Virus record (IMG/VR): IMGVR_UViG_2654587736_000008 | Strand: one strand, 5' to 3' | Length of the DNA: 42,353 nt | Source of the DNA: a virus | Taxonomy: Duplodnaviria; Heunggongvirae; Uroviricota; Caudoviricetes | Part shown: piece after piece, positions 2,331 through 24,793 of the stretch | Position numbering within the stretch: position 1 is the stretch's first letter | How the letters are laid out: every line of letters begins with the position of its first letter | Program-made: the position numbers and the translations under genes | The notes under the pieces: generated by a model | The model's database searches: none | The model's input: only the letters and a program-made list of their open reading frames with translations | What the model was told of the DNA's origin: nothing

Positions 2331-3061
2331 TTCCGCTGCGGCTTCTGCGCGGTCTGCCGCCTTTTCAGCTCGTGTCGCTGCCGACAGAGCCTCATCCTTT
2401 TTCTGCCCGGCCTTTGTTGCGTCTGCTGCAGCCTCCCGCGCTTTTGTGGTGGCGACTCCGGCATTTTCAGCGGCTGACTCTGCATTACGGCGGGAAGCTC
2501 TTCACTGTCTGCGGAGGCTTCTTCTGACGCACGGGCATTTGTCTCTGAACGTTCTGCCGCTGTTGCTGCGTTTTGTGCGGCTGTTTTTGAAGAAGCTGCC
2601 GCTTTCGCGCTGTTACCTGCATTCGTCTCTGATGTTTTCGCCGCGTTCCTGGACGATGCCGCTGCTGTTTCTGATTTCTTTGCTGCCGCTGCGCTCTGAG
2701 AGGCGGCTTCAGCGTTGCGTGCCACATCCTCCACCATTACCTCAAAACGACGCAATGCCTCCGGCATGACATCCTCTTCCGTCATGGCACCCAGAAAATC
2801 ATTCAGCGTCCCCGGCTTAGAATCCTCATACACGGTGATGGTCCCGGCATGTGAAGGCGGAAAACCTTCAACCAGCAGGATAACGCTGTACTGGCCATAC
2901 TCGACATCCATGCTGTAACGTCCGGCTTCATCCGGATTTTCTGAGGCCACCGTGTTCACCACCACCGTGCTGCTGGTCCGTCTGGCCTTCAGCACAATGG
3001 TGCAGTTCTGTACTGGTTTTCCTGTGCCATCTTTAAGCACGCCAGAAATTTTTACTGTCAT
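2327..3061 (-). CDS. stf: Side tail fibre protein, N-terminal portion (lambda Stf-like); reading frame breaks near 2495-2505
   Basis: N-terminus MTVKISGVLKDGTGKPVQNCTIVLKARR...GRYSMDVEYGQYSV closely resembles lambda Stf; the last ~60 residues of this ORF are basic low-complexity, consistent with out-of-frame translation. Confidence 0.7.
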   Translation of the reverse strand: MTVKISGVLKDGTGKPVQNCTIVLKARRTSSTVVVNTVASENPDEAGRYSMDVEYGQYSVILLVEGFPPSHAGTITVYEDSKPGTLNDFLGAMTEEDVMPEALRRFEVMVEDVARNAEAASQSAAAAKKSETAAASSRNAAKTSETNAGNSAKAAASSKTAAQNAATAAERSETNARASEEASADSEELPAVMQSQPLKMPESPPQKRGRLQQTQQRPGRKRMRLCRQRHELKRRQTAQKPQRK

Positions 3062-3075
3062 ACTTTTCCACCAAT

Positions 3076-3106
3076 AAAAAAAGCCCGCAGCAGTGACGCC
3101 ACGGGC
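3076..3106 (-). terminator. Terminator-like hairpin between lom and stf
   Basis: On minus strand GCCCG...CGGGC followed by TTTTTTT; the loop is long, so only moderate confidence. Confidence 0.35.
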
Positions 3107-3212
3107 TTCAGGACAGTGTAACTTTACGTTTCCTCAAACGCAGTTCACTCCATAAGGCGGATGAACCTGCGTATCATAACAATATTTACAGAAGATAAAT
3201 CGGCGTCTGTTG

Positions 3213-3812
3213 TCAGAAACGGTATCCGATACCAACAATAAATGCATCCGTTCGCCAGTCGCCACTACCGGAACCTTCATAAGCAAGGTCAATGGTCACG
3301 GATTCGGTCGGGTTAAACTGCACGCCAGCCCCCCACGCCAGAGACGTGTTGCTGTGGCGACCGTCATCACTTCCGGTCAGCACATCGTGCGTTTTCCCCT
3401 TGTTGTCAGTTACGCGGAGATAATCCCCGGAGAAAGTCGACACACGGCTGTAAGCCACACCCGCCATCGAATACGCGCTGAACCATTCATTCACGCGTAC
3501 AGACGGCCCCGCCATCACGCTGAACCAGCGGTTACGCACGGAATCTTCATGCCAGCGGGTATCGCTGTAGTGCGTTTTTTGCTCATCCTCAGCATTGGCA
3601 TAACTGAAGGACGTAATCAGCCCCAGCGCGTCCGTAAACTCATAACGGTATTTCACGTTAATCCCGTTCAGATTATCGCTGCCGGGAGCGTTCGTACGGG
3701 CATGAAGATACCCCGCGCTCAGTGTGGACTGATGTTCAGACGCCCATGCAGGCGCACCGGATACGGACAGACAGATGGCTGCGGACAAAATGACTGCACA
3801 AACTTTACGCAT
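3213..3812 (-). CDS. lom: Lom outer-membrane protein (Ail/Lom/PagC family)
   Basis: 199 aa; signal peptide then SEHQSTLSAGYLHA...GINVKYRYEF...GIGYRF, near-identical in pattern to lambda Lom. Confidence 0.9.
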   Translation of the reverse strand: MRKVCAVILSAAICLSVSGAPAWASEHQSTLSAGYLHARTNAPGSDNLNGINVKYRYEFTDALGLITSFSYANAEDEQKTHYSDTRWHEDSVRNRWFSVMAGPSVRVNEWFSAYSMAGVAYSRVSTFSGDYLRVTDNKGKTHDVLTGSDDGRHSNTSLAWGAGVQFNPTESVTIDLAYEGSGSGDWRTDAFIVGIGYRF

Positions 3813-9750: not shown

Positions 9751-12700
9751 TACCGATATGCTCCACTTAACCGACCACCATCACGGGCCTGCTGTTGCAT
9801 AAAGTCCGCTGCCGCTTTTTTCCCAAGGTCATAAACCACCTTCAGGGCAGCAGGACCTATCTGCCCGTTCGTGCCATCGTTATTGATCTCGATGTTGTAC
9901 TGCGGGGCAAACATCGCCATACCTGAACCACCAATATCCGCCACAACCCCCAGCTTACCGTCAGCACCACGACGCAGTGGCAGAATGGCTTCAGGTCCAG
10001 CTTCCCCCATCACACCCGCGCCTTTTGCAAAAGCAAAAAACGTCGGACGGTTAACCACCGTGCCACTGTAGCGACTCAAATCAGCCGACTGATAAACACC
10101 GCCATCAGCATTGGCTACAAAATCAAAAGGCAGCGCGGAAGCAATGCCTTTTACCGCTTTCATTAAAGCTATCTGAGCCATGATTCTGGACATATCTGAC
10201 AGCACAGAAGAAGTAAAAGATTTGAAATTGAGTTTGCCTGTAGTACAGAATGTCGCCAGCCAATCACTCATGCTACTGAACGCAGACGTGAACAACTGTT
10301 CCACTGTCCCGGCTGTGTTATCCGCATTCTCAGTGACATTCTGGAGTGCACGCAGGACTCCGTTTTTCCAGTTACCCTGAGCAATTTCAAGCTGTTGCCA
10401 GTAACGGCGATTCTCATTCAGTTGTCGGTTCAGACTCTCCGTCAGCGCCTGCTCGGCCTTTCTGTAGTCATCCGTGTTATATGTCCCTTTCTGCTCACTA
10501 TCCCGCCTCAACTGCTCCAGCTGTTGCTGGTATTTCTGGCGAAGACTCAGTTGTACCTGATATCGCTGCCGCTGCTGATCACCCATACCAACCGTGGCGA
10601 TATCCAGGTCATGTTGCTGACGCTGAGCGCGCTCTTCTTCAGCCAGTTGACTGGTCAGCTGAATTGTTTTTTTCTTCAGATCGTTGAGTGCCGTCTGTTT
10701 CTGAAGCTCCTGCTGTTTTACATCCAGCAGCGTCAGTGCCTGAATCAGTTCATCTTTACGGGCCAGCACACTCTTTTCATCTGCCGTCAGTTTTTTCCCG
10801 TCCAGATCGCTGATGCGCTGCTGCAGAGCCAGAAGCTGTTTATGCGCTTCTGTCATCTTTTCAGTGGCAATGCCTGCTGACTGTCTTGCAGCAGCAATCT
10901 GTCCTTCCACCTGTGCCTGTTGCTGACTGTACTGCAGCAATAACCGGGTGGCCTCATCATTACGGGTTTCGCGTGTTTTTTTCTTACCGGATGCCAGGGC
11001 TTTCTCGTAACGTTCATTTTCACGTTGTATCGCCGCATCCCTGACAGCCTGATCGGCGTACTGCATGGCATTAATACGCGCAATTTCACGCTGATGTCGT
11101 GCAGCTTCCGTTTCATTCATCCGGTTCAGTGCAGCATTTTCAGCATTACGGCGTTTCTGTTGCTCCTGATAATTCCGCTCTGCCTGCTCTTTTGCATCCT
11201 GCAAATCCTTCTGGCGTTTTTTCTCCTGAAGATCGTTAAGACGCTGCTGATCGTATTCAACCTGAGAAGATGATGCCGTCCAGGGGAGTCTTTTCGCCCG
11301 CGACACTTTCTCCTGCAAAGTGGCAATCTGCGCATCCAGCGAATCTTCACGACCAATATTCATGGCCGCATCCCAGAACTGCTTCCACCAGTCAGATAAA
11401 GTTTGCAGCGTACTGCCCAGCGCATTGAGGTTATTATCAATATCCGCAGTACGCCGACCGGTTTCCTCTGCCAGTGCAGACATGGCTATCCGTGCCGCAT
11501 CACTGGACCGCCCCTGCTCTCCAAGGACGCGTATCTGCTCAAGCTGAGTGGCAATAAGAAAATGCAGCTCATTGTCCAGAGACTTCGCGGCATTTACAGG
11601 ATCATCCTTCAGCCGCTTAAACTGATTTATGGTATCGCTGACCGACTGGCCAACCGATCGCTCCATCTGTGCGGCAGCTCTCGCCACCATACCGATATCG
11701 TTTCCACGAAATGCACCACTCCCCACCACCTGAGCCAGCGCACCGGCTGCAGCATGTTGCGTGATACCATTCCCGGAAATAGCACGACTGAGCGTCCACA
11801 GCTGCCCGGCAGTGACTCCGGCATAATGCCCCGTCAGCGACAGCTGGCGGTTAAATTCTTCCCCCTCCTTCTGACCGTCATACCAGGCTTTACCCAGGCC
11901 ATAGACAGCCGCGGCAATACCGCCAATAACCCCGCCAAGCATCATGCCTTTCGGTGACATCAATGTGTCTATCCACCCAGCACGGTTAGCCAGCGTTATT
12001 CCGGATCCCCTCAGCGCACCTAAATTTCCGCGGGCCAGTTCACCTATCAGAACGCCTATCTCCTGACGGGCCGCTGCACTTTTCAGCCCCAGCGAATGCG
12101 TGGCTTTTCCTGCCTGCTCCATTTTGCGGATATACACTTCTGCAGCACTGCTTACCCCCAGCTGGGCAGCCTTAGCACGAAGCAACTCAGAAGAAGAAAG
12201 ATTCTGGCGGGTTGCCTGCTCTTTAAGCTGACGGATAAACGCCACTTTCTGTCGGGTAGCCTCTTCCTCAGCCTGTGTAAGAACACGGGTTTTCGCCGTA
12301 ACCTCAGAAATCAGCGCCAGATAATCCTGCTGACCAATCCCGCCACTGTTTCTGGCCTGTCGGATCTGCTGCTGAATACGCTGTAATTCCTGCAGACCCG
12401 CACTGGCCTGTTTCACACTGTCAATCTGACGATAAAACGCAGCAGCAGCTTTATCCTGAGCCTCCGCCAGAGCCATGGCCTGCGCCTGTTCCTCGCGCAT
12501 TTTCTGGCTCAGCGCCTCCATACGCTGGCGGGTTTTCTCCACCTCGCGGGCCATGCGTTCATGAGCCTGTGCGTTCTTCTCCACCGTCTGCGCATGAACG
12601 GATGCGGCTGTTGCAGCCGAAGACGCCGCCTGCGTTGTCTGCCGGGCGGCCTGAGTCTGACGCTCCATAAAACGCTGCATACGGGCAGAAGACCGTTCTG

Positions 12701-19475: not shown

Positions 19476-19687
19476 CAGAACCTCGCCAGCCGGTACCCGG
19501 GATGCCCCCGTCGTCGTGTAATCAGAGCCGCAAGGCGGCGCTCCCACTCCTGCCGTCCCTGCCGGATCTCAGATAAGTTTTCCATGGTCATCTGCTGACC
19601 ATTAAAGGTGACGGATTTTCCGTCCAGCACCGCCATTTCAGCTTCCGTATAACGCTGAATCATGGCTTCGATATCATTCTGGTTCAT
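19475..19687 (-). CDS. W: Head-tail connector protein W
   Basis: gpW-like small protein ending RRRGHPGYRLARF; ATG at 19687 overlaps the terminase stop (ATGA). Confidence 0.75.
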   Translation of the reverse strand: MNQNDIEAMIQRYTEAEMAVLDGKSVTFNGQQMTMENLSEIRQGRQEWERRLAALITRRRGHPGYRLARF

Positions 19688-21786
19688 AACCATCCTCCGG
19701 AAGTCAGCCAGGGGTTAACATCGTCAGTTACTGTTTTCTTCCGTTTTTGTTTTTTAACAGGCGTGGATACCGGTTCCGGTGAGGGTGACGGTTCGGTACT
19801 GTCCGGGACACACTCCAGCCAGGTTTCCCGGCTCGCCCACTCCGGTGCATCCGGCCAGCGGATCTTTTCGTATCCATGCAGAATGACCAGAGCCTCGGCA
19901 TACACCATCAGGTCAAAAGCTTCGTTGGCACCGCGACCCGGCTTACTCCATTTCCCGTCACTGCTCCGCTCTTCATACGTCAGTTCGTCGTAAAACCAGC
20001 TCCCCAGCCAGTCAGGGAAATGCACATAGCCGGGACCTGGCGAGTCACGCCATAACGCGTTATTCACCCGGTCTTTCAGGGCATCCGTCTGAAGAAGCCA
20101 GAGCGGTACATCACCTGCGGCCTGCGCCCGTCGGCCCGTTCGTCCGGTGTTATCAGGGAATGTACGGGTGATCAGTTTTGCGCGCCGGATGCTGTCGCCC
20201 TTAAACAGGTAAATACGTTTACCAAGGCCATCACGACGGCAACGACGCCAGAATTTATAGGCATTATCAGTGACCCCGTCTTCACCGCCGGAGTCCACCG
20301 CCATTGCCATCAGTCGCATTTGTTGAGAAGGATCGGAGGCCAGCGGCCAGCTTTTATGAAAAACATCCGTCAGCAGGACATCCCAGTCTTCCGGATAACT
20401 GGCCGGATCAATTCGCTGGCTCTCCCCGTCGCTGTCACCGCGCAATGACTGCGTGATGTTGTAACGATCAATAATCCAGCGTTCGCCACGGCTGCCATAG
20501 CCCGTTACCTGAACCACAAAACGGCGATGACGTCCCGCCTGCACATCCACTGTCGCCACAAGGAAATTAACGCCATCCGGCACACTGCGGGAAGGAACTG
20601 GCTCTGCCCGCTGCTCAAGCAGTTCACTTTTTCGTTGCTCCATGCTGGCGCGGGGAAGATAAGGTAATCCCCAGTCGGTATTGATAACCGTCTTGAGTGT
20701 TTCTTCACTTCCGGTTGTCTCGTATTCCTGTTCTGCAGTAAGCAGTTTGTAAACGAGTTGCGAGAGTGTCTGGTAAGCAGCTGCCGGACCCTCCATCCAG
20801 AATGACGCAATACGTGAGCGTCGGGGATCACCATAACGACTGCCATCCGCATTGATGGATTCACCATCCCGCAGCCAGACCCCACGTCCGTTCAGCTCAC
20901 GTTTTTGTTCAGGCATAATCCGTCCTGAACAGGAAGGACACTGAATATAAGCCGCCTCACTTGCCAGCACGGGATCGGCAATATCACGGAAACCAGCAAC
21001 CACATCGCCGCAGGGCTGAAAATACTCACCACAGTGTGGACAGGGCCAGTACCAGCGACGGCGATCGCCACGGTTATAGAGCGACAGTATCCCAGTGGTT
21101 GGTGGAGCCTCATGCGGTGAAGTCCGTCGCCATTTCACATCCTTCACATCCCTGCCGGGGGAACTCTCCACCAGCGTCATACCACTGGACATAAATGTTG
21201 TGGTACGTTTTGAGGCAAGAGAGAAAGCATCCCCCTCGCCATCAATATCTTCCGGAAAACGGTCATAATCCGTCAGCGCGACGCATTTATAATCTGATGA
21301 GGACATGATATTGACTGACGGCCAGCCGATTTTCAGGTAGTTGCCAGCAAGGAATGTTCTGTCATAAACGTTGTTGTCATTTTTGTTCGGACTCAGGCGA
21401 CTGACCACTTCCGGGCTGACGCGAAACGTTCTGGCGAGTCGTTTTTTGGAGTGTTCGCGGGCTTTTTCCTCCGTCATCTGAATGATCAGCATATCCGCAG
21501 GGTCGCAAATCACGTTGTAAATCACCCAGCCGTCAATCAGGCCGATAGTCTTGCCGGTTCGTGCCGGGCCAACAAATATCACTGCGTCGTATTCACGCGA
21601 GGCCAGGCAGTTCATCGGCTCAATAACATACGGTGCCACCAGCGGATCCCACGGGACTGAGTTCCCTGCCCCCATGGGCACCCGCATATACTGAGCAACG
21701 GCATCAGCAACCCGCATTCGTCTCGGTGCGCGAAGGATATAACCTGAATCGGTTCGTGCTGCCTTTGCGGTTTCCTGATTCAGCAT
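19684..21786 (-). CDS. A: Terminase large subunit (lambda gpA-like)
   Basis: 700 aa; Walker A-like VGPARTGKT; collinear with lambda A. Confidence 0.9.
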   Translation of the reverse strand: MLNQETAKAARTDSGYILRAPRRMRVADAVAQYMRVPMGAGNSVPWDPLVAPYVIEPMNCLASREYDAVIFVGPARTGKTIGLIDGWVIYNVICDPADMLIIQMTEEKAREHSKKRLARTFRVSPEVVSRLSPNKNDNNVYDRTFLAGNYLKIGWPSVNIMSSSDYKCVALTDYDRFPEDIDGEGDAFSLASKRTTTFMSSGMTLVESSPGRDVKDVKWRRTSPHEAPPTTGILSLYNRGDRRRWYWPCPHCGEYFQPCGDVVAGFRDIADPVLASEAAYIQCPSCSGRIMPEQKRELNGRGVWLRDGESINADGSRYGDPRRSRIASFWMEGPAAAYQTLSQLVYKLLTAEQEYETTGSEETLKTVINTDWGLPYLPRASMEQRKSELLEQRAEPVPSRSVPDGVNFLVATVDVQAGRHRRFVVQVTGYGSRGERWIIDRYNITQSLRGDSDGESQRIDPASYPEDWDVLLTDVFHKSWPLASDPSQQMRLMAMAVDSGGEDGVTDNAYKFWRRCRRDGLGKRIYLFKGDSIRRAKLITRTFPDNTGRTGRRAQAAGDVPLWLLQTDALKDRVNNALWRDSPGPGYVHFPDWLGSWFYDELTYEERSSDGKWSKPGRGANEAFDLMVYAEALVILHGYEKIRWPDAPEWASRETWLECVPDSTEPSPSPEPVSTPVKKQKRKKTVTDDVNPWLTSGGWL

Positions 21787-22277
21787 TACTCCTCCTGCTG
21801 TAATTCCTCCTCATCATCCGCACCTGCTTCGGTCACCCGCAGGGCTATCTGATCGCGCAGATCATCAATAATGGACTGAACACGGCTCACAGCGGCAGGC
21901 TGCAGGCCGCAGTCACGTTCCAGAATATCCGGTAATGTCTCCAGCACCTGCACGACCGCTTTTGCCCAGATGGCAAACTCCCGTCTGACATCACTGGCCG
22001 GAATGAGTTGTGCCGTTTCCTGTTCGAACTTAAGACGCTCACGTTCAGACTGATACCAGGCTTTGCGTTCATGTGGATCCATTTCGCCCTCAGCAACCGG
22101 CGGTGGTAACCCCATAAATTCAGTCAGAATATCGGTCAACCGGTATAGCTTGAGTTTGTCATGTCCACCAGCGGGACGAATGTTTTTCAGTCTTGCCACG
22201 ACAGTCTGGCGGTGCAGACCAGATAAAGCCGCCAGTTGATTAATATTCAGCACCAGGTTTTTCAACTCATGATCCAT
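21786..22277 (-). CDS. Terminase small subunit (Nu1-like)
   Basis: 163 aa; N-terminal wHTH (LNINQLAALSGLHRQTVVARLKN); acidic C-terminus; SD GGAGG. Confidence 0.8.
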   Translation of the reverse strand: MDHELKNLVLNINQLAALSGLHRQTVVARLKNIRPAGGHDKLKLYRLTDILTEFMGLPPPVAEGEMDPHERKAWYQSERERLKFEQETAQLIPASDVRREFAIWAKAVVQVLETLPDILERDCGLQPAAVSRVQSIIDDLRDQIALRVTEAGADDEEELQQEE

Positions 22278-22289
22278 ATTTCCTCCGGA

Positions 22290-22470
22290 GAGCTTTAAAC
22301 ATGCATCGTGCGAACAACTTTAAGAAAACGCGTTCGATGTCGAACAAAAAACACTCAATTCGACATGCAAAAAACAAATAACCATTAATAATCAATAAGA
22401 TGCAAAGATGATGGTGGCCAATAAAAATGCAAAAACTAGCCTTTTTCCGCGACGCTCCCGCCCCGTGGCA
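22290..22470 (-). other. Candidate cos site: cosB-like repeats (22300-22376) and cosN-like GC-rich element (22447-22466)
   Basis: Minus strand reads GGGGCGGGAGCGTCGCGG, resembling lambda cosN GGGCGGCGACCTCGCGG, about 170 bp upstream of Nu1; TCGAACA/TCGACAT motif occurs three times between. Confidence 0.5.
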
Positions 22471-22519
22471 GGCCACCCCACCGGGAGGACCCGTCAGCCT
22501 GACAGCCATGACGAACGTC

Positions 22520-22795
22520 TTATACAGCCCTTGCATGAATGGCATCGGGATAATCCAGAAAGGAATAGCATCGACCCACAAGAATCTGTGTGAGTGTCCT
22601 GTTTCTTCCACCCCCGCACAGGACTGGCGAGCATGAGGGACAACCTCGCGAACCATAACCGCGCTGATGACAGGACTGGCCCGGCTTGTATTGCTTCCAG
22701 CCTTCGCTTTTGTGGCTTTTGCAATAGCCTGACGGATCTGTGGTGGTATGGCGGCAGCCGCGAACTCGGCATGCTTTTGAGGTTCGAGGGAGCAT
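22520..22795 (-). CDS. Cys-rich small ORF with HNH-endonuclease-like N-terminus; possibly a degraded gene
   Basis: MLPRTSKACRVRGCRHTTTDPSGYCKSHKSEGWKQYKPG...HQRGYGSR pattern; the downstream part does not continue the expected HNH motifs in any single frame. Confidence 0.3.
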   Translation of the reverse strand: MLPRTSKACRVRGCRHTTTDPSGYCKSHKSEGWKQYKPGQSCHQRGYGSRGCPSCSPVLCGGGRNRTLTQILVGRCYSFLDYPDAIHARAV

Positions 22796-22910
22796 ATGTA
22801 CTCCAATGAAGAAGCCACCGACATAGTCTCCTCCATTCGTCGTGAAACTATTTTCATCTACCCAGTAATGAACTCTTTGAAGAGTTGTAATCAATACAAC
22901 TCGCTAATGG

Positions 22911-22934
22911 AGAGGCTTGTCTCACACGTGAGAC
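22911..22934. repeat. Perfect 24-bp palindrome / hairpin (GCTTGTCTCACACGTGAGACAAGC)
   Basis: 10-bp arms around a CACG centre, in the intergenic region between the lysis and packaging modules. Confidence 0.6.
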
Positions 22935-23289
22935 AAGCTTCCTGTTTGATTTACTGGACACTATAGAAGGACAGAATGCCTTCCTCACTCGAATCACATC
23001 AATTAAGGAGGTTCAACATGTTTCATTCCACAAGTCATCAGGCTGTAATTATGGCAGCATCAGTTTGTGCCACAGACCTTTTCCGCTTCACTTTGAGCCT
23101 GATTCATTTCTACCTGACCGGCTCGCCTCTATCTTTCTAATCCCCGATTTATCCAAATTTCACTGCCATAATGCCGACATTCTCTGCCATTGTTGGCTCC
23201 GTTTATCCGTTAAAAGGGATATCAGTTAAGTTATCCCGTGCAGGGTATAAGCCATTATCAAACCCACCCGTAGATAGGCTTTGTAATGG

Positions 23290-23808
23290 CTACTTCTTCA
23301 GAAATGATTCGATGAATTCACGTCGAGGATGACGATAGTTCAGAATATCTTCTGGCATCCTCATAAAGCGGTTGTTGCCGTCTTTGGCAGTAACAAAACA
23401 GCTGTGAACTCCGCAGACATCCGTTTTGATCGTGTCGCTATACTCAAAAAGCAACTGAGCCATCTTCTCTTGCCATTCTGGAGGCATAGCCTCCATGAAT
23501 ACTCGCGGCATCACGCAGAACGACGCATGCGTAAGACCAAACCACAGTTGCAGGTCTTTACGATATTCTTCATCCATCGTCTTTACCTTTGTTGCAATAA
23601 AAAGCCCCGCGAATGCGAGGCTAAATCCTAGTGTTTGTGATGACTGGCTCTTATCTAAACGCAGCCCCTTACCGCGCGCCAAATGCTCAACTTTAAGCAT
23701 CAGCAATGAGATGTTTAATCTGGATTCACTCCAGAAGTGATCACCACCCTGTCTACAGAGCCAGATGTGAAGGATGATGAGTAAAATTATCTCTATCATC
23801 GAAGGCAT
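23290..23808 (-). CDS. Hypothetical protein in the bor position (moron candidate), N-terminal hydrophobic segment
   Basis: 172-aa ORF after Rz; relatively AT-rich; no recognisable family. Confidence 0.45.
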
Positions 23809-24263
23809 TGCGTCCTGATATATTCCTGAAGCGTTCTCAGTGCTGTCTGGTCTCTGATGATTCCGTCCCGGATACCGAGAACGTTTCGTCCAGCAACTGG
23901 AGAGAGTTCGACGGTGGCATCATTGCCCATGCCGGAGGCGCTGGAGGTTTCGGCTGAGGATGGCACAGAGCATTTTCCTTTGACGAGCACCCGACCACCA
24001 TTATCAAGCTTGCGCCGAAGAGCATCATTTTTAGCTTTCGCATCAGCCAACTCCTTCGTGTATTTAGCATCGAGTACATCAGCAGCACGCTGGCGTTGCT
24101 GCATGTCAGTAATGGTGGCGGTCGCCTGCTTCAGCTCACTGACTTTTTTATCACGCTGTTCTTTGTAGGCGATGGCGTTATCACGGTAATGATTGACCGC
24201 CCACGACAGGCAGACGATGGTGCAGATAACCAGAGTATAAATAATCGCTGCGACTCTGCTCAC
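23796..24263 (-). CDS. Rz: Spanin inner-membrane subunit Rz (i-spanin)
   Basis: N-terminal TM ([19 protein letters not shown]), coiled-coil body, C-terminal Cys; GTG start overlapping endolysin stop (TTG at 24278 also possible). Confidence 0.8.
23837..24043 (-). CDS. Rz1: Spanin outer-membrane lipoprotein Rz1 (o-spanin), embedded in Rz in the +1 frame
   Basis: [21 protein letters not shown] lipobox followed by Pro-rich [11 protein letters not shown]. Confidence 0.8.
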
Positions 24264-24793
24264 TGATCTATCCCCCAACAGGCTAATGCGCTTTCCTGGT
24301 CACGACGAATAACCTGTCCATAGCAGTTATTTGAACGTATGCGGCAATCGCGCCCACCATCTTTTATCCACCAGCGAATCGCCTCGCATGCGCCCTTACG
24401 ATCACCGGCATTCAGCCGCTTATAAAACGTCGACGGGAAACACTTACCGGGGCCAATGTTATAGGGACAGAATGACGCTATACCCGCTTTCTGTGGTTCG
24501 GTCAGTGGTACTTTAATATTGCGCTCTACCCATGCCAGCGCCTTATCACGTTCAATAGCGTTAACCTGGTCGCATTTTTCCTTCGACAGCTTCATTCCCG
24601 GTATGACGGGCTTACCATCCACCATTGTGGCACCCCGACAGATGGTCCAGATGCCGGCCCCATCGCGGTATGCCGTTGTGTGGTTACCTTCTTTTTCATC
24701 CAGAAACTGGTCGAGAATATCAGGCGCGGGCGCACCGACGGCAATCAGTGCCAGAACGGCAGCCGACAGGCCGTATCTGATTTTTGCGTTCAT
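24260..24793 (-). CDS. R: SAR endolysin (T4-lysozyme-like, GH24)
   Basis: 177 aa; N-terminal signal-anchor-release-like segment ([16 protein letters not shown]), then lysozyme-like body resembling phage 21 R. Confidence 0.8.

Follow-up and report, generated by a model that had tools for sequence, protein, structure and literature searches.

The so-called T7 islands, reportedly described by Chen and Schneider in 2006, are tandem clusters of T7-like promoters in enterobacterial genomes. They are said to span 4-13 kb, to hold promoters for 2-5 phage-related proteins and to have been read as mobile elements, the idea being that an infecting T7-like phage supplies the polymerase. Here we analyse a related arrangement in the IMG/VR virus record IMGVR_UViG_2654587736_000008, a 42,353-nucleotide (nt) Caudoviricetes sequence that represents a lambdoid prophage of Escherichia coli, whose late genes lie on the minus strand; this whole stretch is called the window below. 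On the plus strand, opposite the late genes, lies what appears to be a self-contained unit: a degenerate T7/Berlinvirus-type promoter, a stem-loop, a K1-5/K1E-type promoter, a 52-nt leader with a Shine-Dalgarno (SD) sequence and an open reading frame (ORF) of 40 codons, named ORF40. We hold with high confidence that this cassette consists of a real gene and real promoters for phage polymerases. As to its purpose, we lean towards a trap that would be triggered by the polymerase of an invading phage, probably with abortive infection as the outcome.

As in the T7 islands, at least two tandem promoters of the T7-group type stand in enteric prophage-like DNA that has no cognate polymerase gene; in the window there are two such elements, 57 bp apart, one of them degenerate. 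The difference lies in the payload, i.e. a single gene for a peptide of 32-41 amino acids (aa), which sits in HK97-like and lambdoid prophages and usually overlaps the end of lysC, the o-spanin gene. It also lies in the promoter classes, which here (K1-5, Klebsiella Molineuxvirinae) match virulent phages of the same host genus. The layout of promoter, 5' stem-loop and strong SD copies the natural late promoters of these virulent phages. Late signals of the T7/SP6 type (the K1-5 gene 31 promoter, T7 phi10, and also pET vectors) likewise combine a 23-bp promoter with a 5' stem-loop and, a few dozen bases further on, a strong SD. The cassette differs from them in that it resides in a temperate phage without such a polymerase and would drive a 40-aa peptide that is absent from Autographiviridae.

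The proposed outcome, a small membrane-active product that aborts infection, resembles hok/sok and lambda RexAB; the exclusion of T4 by hok/sok was reportedly described by Pecota and Wood in 1996. Hok/sok is triggered by the decay of its antisense RNA after host shut-off and RexAB by a protein-DNA complex, whereas the trigger proposed here would be direct transcription by the invader's polymerase. No sequence similarity of the peptide to Hok or RexB was found in Pfam, PADLOC and NCBIfam searches. The logic of a phage-activated promoter fused to a lethal gene is the same as in the LlaIR+ suicide cassette which Djordjevic, O'Sullivan, Walker, Conkling and Klaenhammer are said to have placed behind a phage phi31 promoter in Lactococcus in 1997. 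That cassette was laboratory-built, whereas the present one would be natural and widespread and often has up to 3 promoter specificities in tandem. In the literature we found no described prophage toxin or peptide that is transcribed by an invader's phage polymerase, the nearest prior work being that of Chen and Schneider (2005/2006). Promoter clusters are known already; what appears to be new is the conserved peptide payload, its overlap with lysC, the match of promoter classes to the host and the reading as a defence.

Phage-polymerase promoters and the transcript leader

A promoter of a single-subunit phage polymerase covers about 23 bp (-17 to +6), with an AT-rich part at -17 to -13, a specificity region at -12 to -5, TATA at -4 to -1 and a G at +1. 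By its sequence, the segment 22949-22969 (ATTTACTGGACACTATAGAAG) is a promoter of the K1-5/K1E class of phage RNA polymerase. It is identical at 21 of 21 positions to the K1-5 promoters at 12580, 14590, 22852 (before gene 31) and 39265. With up to 5 mismatches allowed, the K1-5 genome has 14 such sites, all on the coding strand, and the window has exactly one. A 31-mer of the proximal promoter has matches in 125 phage records, at 792 places in all; most are in K1E/K1-5-like phages, which have 7-10 places each, and almost all of the places have no annotated gene beneath. The exact K1-5 consensus is retained by 60 of the 99 E. coli copies of the locus; the homologous element in Shigella phage SfIV is ATTTAGGTGACACTTTAGAAGG, one base off the SP6 promoter. 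The initial annotation had described the region upstream of the ORF as a repeat followed by an SD and had overlooked both promoters, including the one with the 21/21 match. Their presence moves the question from expression by the prophage to expression by an invading phage.

The distal element is of the T7-supergroup, Berlinvirus-like type. The annotated promoters of phage ETEP21B yield a Berlinvirus consensus, TAATACGACTCACTAATGGGAGA, from which the window copy differs at 7 of 23 positions. It is the best site in the window, but just one mismatch better than unrelated sequences. The consensus is approached much more closely by the SfIV copy, CAATACGACTCACTAATGGGGAG, and by the most frequent E. 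coli variant, CAATACAACTCACTAATGGAGAG (60 copies), and BLAST matches distal variants to T7-like phages at sites annotated as promoters. The distal element also shares 5 extra upstream bases with the phi17 promoter of Berlinvirus, a hint of capture.

The promoters were then compared across related loci; the K1-5, Berlinvirus, K11 and F5M1D promoters were derived from the phage genomes. When the 300 nt upstream of the ORF are compared for 71 unique loci, the ORF strand has 102 copies of the core [CG]A[CG][TA]ATAG and the opposite strand has none (about 0.6 per strand expected), a ratio that overstates the number of independent events since the loci are mutually related. The positions peak near -40, -115 and -155. 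The loci have 1-3 tandem Autographiviridae-type promoters before the ORF, and the elements form classes that lie 1-2 mismatches from the T7, T3, K11 and SP6 consensuses, plus other classes. For two classes there are exact matches in virulent phages that share the host genus. Klebsiella Molineuxvirinae phages have the Klebsiella element TAATAGTGGCGAGTATAGAAC as their multi-copy promoter, with exact 21-nt matches at 8-10 places per genome and at least 10 same-strand sites of this class in phage F5M1D. Moreover, AATTAGGGCCCACTATAG falls inside the natural variation of annotated K11 promoters. Outside the promoter itself, i.e. beyond 21-31 nt, there is no homology to the virulent phages.

Promoters and ORF occur together. 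Both are present in 59 loci, the ORF alone in 12, promoters alone in 1 and neither in 20, which argues that they form one unit; the sole locus with promoters only has the ORF with an earlier stop.

A third class, (G/A)ATAAGTTACACAATAGAACGC or GATTAGTCAACACAATAGAAC, lies at about -36 from the ATG and is the element nearest the ORF in many Klebsiella-type cassettes (L119, L134, L136, L206 and others). Its 15-mer AGTTACACAATAGAA gave single, apparently random matches only in IMG/VR, and no clear cognate phage was seen in the searched collections. This class may point to a poorly sampled Autographiviridae lineage.

No gene for a polymerase that could read these promoters accompanies them. A tblastn search with the K1-5 and ETEP21B polymerases gave a best E of 0.78 in the window; in 592 kb of cassette loci no match reached E <= 1e-3. 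A simple scan, which a weak promoter could escape, found 0 sigma-70-like promoters on either strand of 22200-23900, with 2.6 expected. With neither a single-subunit polymerase gene nor a sigma-70-type promoter, the cassette should be silent in the lysogen.

The predicted leader of the proximal transcript has no significant structure of its own (fold z = 0.21), and a small hairpin at the transcript start, GAAGGACAGAATGCCTTC, was dropped as a candidate because folding gives it no support at this z value. The string from the SD to the ATG is the same in 91 of the 99 copies.

Between the two promoters lies an inverted repeat, which the initial annotation had called a perfect 24-bp palindrome at 22911-22934. 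The repeat is real, but its place was 4 bp off: GCTTGTCTCACACGTGAGACAAGC occurs once in the window, at 22915-22938. It has perfect arms of 11 bp only around a 2-nt centre, AC, so that the 24 bases are not self-complementary throughout; the arms can be extended to 14 bp (22912-22925 and 22928-22941) with one G.T position. Its end lies 66 bp upstream of the SD and not about 85 bp, as had been stated. By our own arithmetic, about 0.07 perfect 11-bp inverted repeats with a short gap are expected by chance per 42 kb.

The repeat folds well as RNA. The plus strand folds at -21.1 kcal/mol (z = -5.3, matched by 0 of 200 shuffles) and the minus strand at -18.4 kcal/mol. The stem arms show compensatory changes (CTCAC/GTGAG, CCAAC/GTTGG and CTAAC/GTTAG), and over 20 variants the covariation of the stem is 0.309 vs. 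0.191 in shuffles, 0 of 500 of which reach it, and 0.04-0.16 in slid controls. Pair 14-24 is CG in 13 and UA in 7 variants, pair 15-23 is AU in 15 and CG in 5, and neither has an unpaired cell. In the E. coli/Shigella set the non-Watson-Crick positions are G.U on the plus strand in 23 cases vs. 4 on the minus strand, a bias that favours plus-strand RNA over a DNA palindrome as the form under selection. The repeat always begins a few bases past a promoter +1, and the natural Berlinvirus, K11 and K1-5 promoters likewise have a stem-loop that starts at or near +1. On this comparison of sequences, the inverted repeat is the 5'-end stem-loop of the transcript predicted from the T7-type promoter and not a separate operator. 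It likely stabilises the transcript and, in the window copy, likely gives some insulation from read-through. In about 10 cassette variants that retain the promoters and the ORF the right arm is missing, which suggests that the stem-loop is helpful and not essential.

We consider it improbable that the repeat works alone and unlinked to the ORF, either as an intrinsic terminator for plus-strand transcription or as a palindromic protein-binding site. A simple terminator scan does flag the window repeat (13 pairs, then CTGTTTGATT), and the core TCCAAC..GTTGGA is conserved in sequence among distant cassettes. However, the T-rich tail is missing from Klebsiella-type copies, where the next promoter comes directly after, and the loss of the right arm next to intact promoters and ORF, the G.U bias and the constant position just past a promoter +1, as in virulent phages, all speak against a stand-alone role. 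Insulation against read-through by the host polymerase would, moreover, be in keeping with a trap. A role as cos or terminase-binding site was rejected, since cos lies near 22303 and, in native SfIV, about 450 bp and the HNH gene separate the repeat from the genome end.

ORF40 and its peptide family

The SD, the ATG, the 40-codon ORF and its translation are all as the initial annotation had given them. Its description as hydrophobic fits to a moderate degree only, the best 19-residue Kyte-Doolittle value being 1.53 as compared to a family median of 1.90. The conservation in related prophages that had been named as a test of the ORF is borne out. The 40-codon frame is intact in 99 of 99 relatives from IMG/VR and GenBank, which encode 20 peptide variants, and about 20 versions that are unrelated at the nucleotide level exist in E. 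coli, Shigella and Klebsiella phages. The 99 copies are closely related and, when taken alone, are little proof of coding. The substitution pattern in the E. coli/Shigella branch was also tried as a coding test and is uninformative, because almost every change is non-synonymous and the substitutions are too few for the absence of stops to count.

More distant loci give the decisive evidence. In three Klebsiella phages the DNA shared with the window is limited to about 90 nt at the lysC end; these phages nevertheless have a strong SD, an ATG and an ORF of 37-39 codons with the same stop, their N-terminal and leader sequences being unrelated. Anchoring on the back-translated lysC motif QCNLDKAGI recovered 116 loci; a stop is found at the anchor in 106 of these, about 85% of which carry an ORF of 32-41 codons behind an SD. 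When families are defined at no more than 70% nucleotide identity over -25 to +66, all 20 keep an ATG or TTG start and a frame of 32-41 codons, and 18 have a canonical SD of the GGAG/GAGG type. Other reading frames over the same interval are open in 0-2 of the 20 families. That start and frame, and nearly always the SD, are kept in spite of unrelated sequence marks ORF40 as a genuine small gene that is conserved, and speaks against an ORF open by chance.

A loose motif, ..AYAxxINxIIxLICLLIAKxxGVLQYF, is common to the peptides. AlphaFold2, run on an alignment of 81 sequences, predicts a single helix over residues 4-34 with a mean predicted local distance difference test (pLDDT) score of 78. A small membrane peptide that is possibly toxic is a plausible interpretation of this model. 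A profile search in 5.8 billion proteins returned 86 clusters, whose members are 32-41 aa long and come from E. coli, Klebsiella and Enterobacter; every cluster is labelled 'hypothetical' or 'uncharacterised' and lacks a Pfam domain, and the peptide and its relatives had no match in Pfam, PHROGs, PADLOC and NCBIfam. The peptide is present in temperate phages only and was not found in Autographiviridae, i.e. only the promoters are common with virulent phages. The cassette was found in 686 of 5426 complete E. coli genomes (about one in eight), and one Klebsiella peptide cluster covers at least 1000 contigs; species-representative genomes, scanned twice with lysC-end patterns, gave 0 and 2 loci. 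RefSeq leaves the ORF unannotated in 40 of 40 E. coli genomes among those listed, so that standard annotation overlooks a conserved gene family. A holin or pinholin was rejected as an identity, given that ORF40 lies on the strand opposite to holin, endolysin and spanins and has no Pfam, PHROG or NCBIfam match.

ORF40 and lysC are convergent in the native arrangement, the C-terminal half of the ORF being antisense to the end of lysC; most families show this overlap. The roughly 55 overlapped nucleotides are the sole part that BLAST can align between E. coli and Klebsiella phages, which suggests a double constraint. The stop of the ORF is the antisense of the Ile-Arg codons in the lysC motif GIR(K/R)IE, where ATT+AGR gives TAA, ATC+AGR gives TGA and ATA gives no stop; this tail-to-tail phasing was seen at 23087-23140 of the window and at loci L004, L033, L034 and L114-L116.

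The overlap allows a sceptical explanation, namely that the cassette is functionless debris. Illegitimate recombination with virulent phages would have brought in promoter fragments, and the ORF would remain open solely through the constraint that lysC puts on its 3' half. The antisense position of the C-terminal half is in line with this, as are the lack of excess synonymous change in the N-terminal half of the E. coli branch, the mosaic block around the cassette with its two gene fragments, and the 5 bases shared with the phi17 promoter. We nevertheless give debris little credence. The homology to virulent phages stops at the promoter borders, several promoter classes stand in tandem and in one orientation and always with the ORF, and 20 families with unrelated N-terminal halves and leaders all retain the start and the frame, nearly all with a canonical SD. 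The many E. coli copies with an exact K1-5 consensus argue in the same direction.

The initial annotation had implied another layout, that of a type I toxin with an antisense RNA, or a small membrane protein expressed by the prophage. Transcription would then be by the host polymerase under antisense RNA control, with the late lysC 3' end as one candidate partner. The product, helical, hydrophobic and at 40 aa within the type I toxin size of <60 aa, would suit such a role; so would the very strong SD and the convergence with lysC, whose 3' end the ORF overlaps in the ancestral arrangement. Parts of the layout are missing, however. Besides the absence of sigma-70-like sites, an Rfam scan of 22200-23900 at E <= 10 gave chance-level matches only (ST7-OT4_3, AbsR28, ceN54) and no known small RNA or leader, the toxin families in Pfam, NCBIfam and PADLOC are not matched, and the lysC partner is merely a fragment in the window. 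A type I system would also leave unexplained why exact, strand-specific phage-polymerase promoters accompany the ORF, and we regard it as very unlikely. The ST7-OT4_3 match, to a region of a human long non-coding RNA, lies at 22343-22633 on the minus strand and scores 28 bits vs. a gathering score of 50; we take it as chance.

A possible trigger by the polymerase of an invader

The trap that we favour would work as follows. The cassette would be silent in the lysogen until a virulent Autographiviridae phage of the K1-5/K1E type, or perhaps of the T7 type, infects the cell and makes its own polymerase. This polymerase would fire the cassette promoters, and the consensus SD would then allow massive translation of the hydrophobic single-helix peptide. 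Membrane damage or another block would kill the infected cell before the invader completes its cycle, and this premature death would amount to an abortive infection that protects sister lysogens.

An explanation closer to the T7 island idea is satellite-like hijacking, in which a mobile element borrows the invader's polymerase for its own escape or spread and does not kill the cell. The bor/iss gene that follows on the same strand in O157-type prophages is in accordance with this. In the window and in lysC-type loci, by contrast, the promoters are followed on their own strand by no gene other than the ORF of 32-41 aa, all sequence beyond it is antisense to lysis genes, and no packaging, replication or excision gene follows. 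We therefore think hijacking unlikely.

Several observations weigh against the trap. The window copy of the distal element is degenerate and its mismatches include position -6, and the strand ratio of the core motif comes from related loci, as was said above. Within the peptide family, hydrophobicity is lowest in the E. coli/Shigella branch, with 0.90 for the SfIV type being lower still than the value of the window. Between the window and the SfIV type nearly all changes in the N-terminal half are non-synonymous, a pattern that weak constraint fits as well as diversifying selection. Finally, transcripts of the cassette would also reach its neighbours, i.e. the lysis genes in antisense or, in O157-type prophages, bor/iss, so that the peptide is maybe not the sole output.

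More tentatively, the family as a whole could be a natural 'promoter-bait' defence, i.e. a promoter array that drives one tiny lethal membrane peptide and in which every promoter suits the polymerase of another virulent Autographiviridae lineage with the same host. E. coli copies would be tuned to the K1-5/K1E and T7/Berlin types and Klebsiella copies to the K11 and Molineuxvirinae types. If so, an unannotated cassette of 250 bp would be a defence device with a promoter as its sensor, and transcriptional bait would be a recognition principle apart from the catalogued defences that sense proteins or nucleic acids. It would also explain T7 islands and other promoters of the virulent T7/SP6 type in chromosomes without a polymerase. 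Host-range barriers would be predicted for phages of the K1E/K1-5, T7 and K11 types, including therapy candidates against K1 E. coli and Klebsiella, and the cassette would offer a compact natural template for phage-triggered kill switches.

Prophage setting and neighbouring features

The coordinates of the cassette and of its surroundings are given in Table 1. The cassette belongs to a block of 538 nt that stands in place of about 135 nt of backbone of the mEp460/PhiR40_1 type. When the closest backbone relatives mEp460, PhiR40_1 and Ayreon were used for comparison, BLAST homology to the backbone stops at 22663 and picks up again at 23202; the equivalent PhiR40_1 segment carries no such cassette. 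The block is 85-95% homologous to the right end of HK97-like temperate phages, e.g. SfIV, and is matched by many E. coli prophages as well. The gene order in those phages is holin, endolysin, i-spanin, o-spanin (lysC), cassette region, HNH endonuclease, P27-type small terminase and large terminase. The identical locus is present in E. coli EC9682 and W224N.

Table 1. Features of the cassette and its surroundings in the window
Feature	Position	Strand	Remarks
Distal promoter-like element, T7-supergroup (Berlinvirus-like), degenerate	22892-22914 (-17 to +6)	+	CAATACAACTCGCTAATGGAGAG; predicted +1 = G22909
Stem-loop	22912-22941 (core 22915-22938)	+	+4 to +33 of the transcript predicted from the distal promoter
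Proximal promoter, K1-5/K1E (Vectrevirus, SP6-like) type	22949-22971	+	ATTTACTGGACACTATA followed by GAAGGA; predicted +1 = G22966
Predicted 5' untranslated region, 52 nt	22966-23017	+	consensus SD TAAGGAGGT at 23004-23012, 5 nt before the ATG
ORF40, 40 codons	23018-23140 (stop 23138-23140)	+	MFHSTSHQAVIMAASVCATDLFRFTLSLIHFYLTGSPLSF; member of an unnamed peptide family (32-41 aa)
Mosaic block (HNH fragment, promoters, ORF40, lysC fragment)	22664-23201		BLAST junctions
HNH endonuclease pseudogene, HK97/SfIV type, 5' fragment (first ~50 codons)	22646-22795	-	homology to SfIV HNH
Relic of the last ~31 codons of the Rz1-like o-spanin gene (lysC)	23087-23179	-	overlapped antisense by the C-terminal half of ORF40
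Large terminase, lambda GpA type	19684-21786	-	
Nu1-like DUF1441 protein	21786-22277	-	
Small hypothetical gene, 95 aa	23290-23577	-	WP_000343116.1; between Rz and the cassette
Rz gene	23796-24278	-	
Lysozyme gene	24260-24793	-	
DNA methylase, holin		-	late genes of the window

Both flanks of the block are decayed genes. RefSeq calls the equivalent of the HNH fragment an incomplete HNH endonuclease in the EC9682 locus, and this fragment appears to have travelled together with the cassette. The annotated lysC/o-spanin coding sequences of SfIV, E. coli JNE131328 and TUM1226 terminate at the equivalent of 23087, and their homology to the window stops at 23179. The sequence between the two fragments is intact in the window. 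The cassette is found in three neighbourhoods, i.e. the lysC type, the bor/iss type and the lambda-terminase type of the window. That a perfect promoter and the ORF were kept while the accompanying HNH and lysC genes decayed, together with the three neighbourhoods, argues that the cassette is selected for itself.

In the bor/iss neighbourhood the serum-resistance lipoprotein gene iss/bor lies about 180 nt past the ORF on the same strand; in O157-type prophages it is at 2962-3255 of locus L035 (O157:H7 F8092B) and at 3039-3332 of locus L005 (vB_EcoS-640R1). In L035 an IS3-family insertion sequence, IS1203, also splits the HNH gene beside the cassette (1050-2263), and the cassette itself is intact. 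In the window the HNH fragment adjoins a lambda-type terminase (Nu1-like and GpA-type genes); since such an HNH enzyme works with P27/HK97-type terminases, the fragment is left over from an exchange of modules between two packaging systems. In an alignment with phage mEp460, the right end of that genome falls at about 22303 of the window, which places cos there.

A second insertion with respect to mEp460, PhiR40_1 and Ayreon, at 23291-23593, holds the gene for the 95-aa hypothetical protein. On the minus strand a terminator-like hairpin with a T run (AGCCTCGCATTCGCGGGGCT TTTTATTGCA) follows directly after the lysis genes at 23603-23622. An imperfect inverted repeat at 23250-23291 is the counterpart of a terminator annotated in phage Ayreon, and the hairpin of PhiR40_1 that is equivalent to the 23250-23291 / 23603-23622 region appears to be bidirectional.

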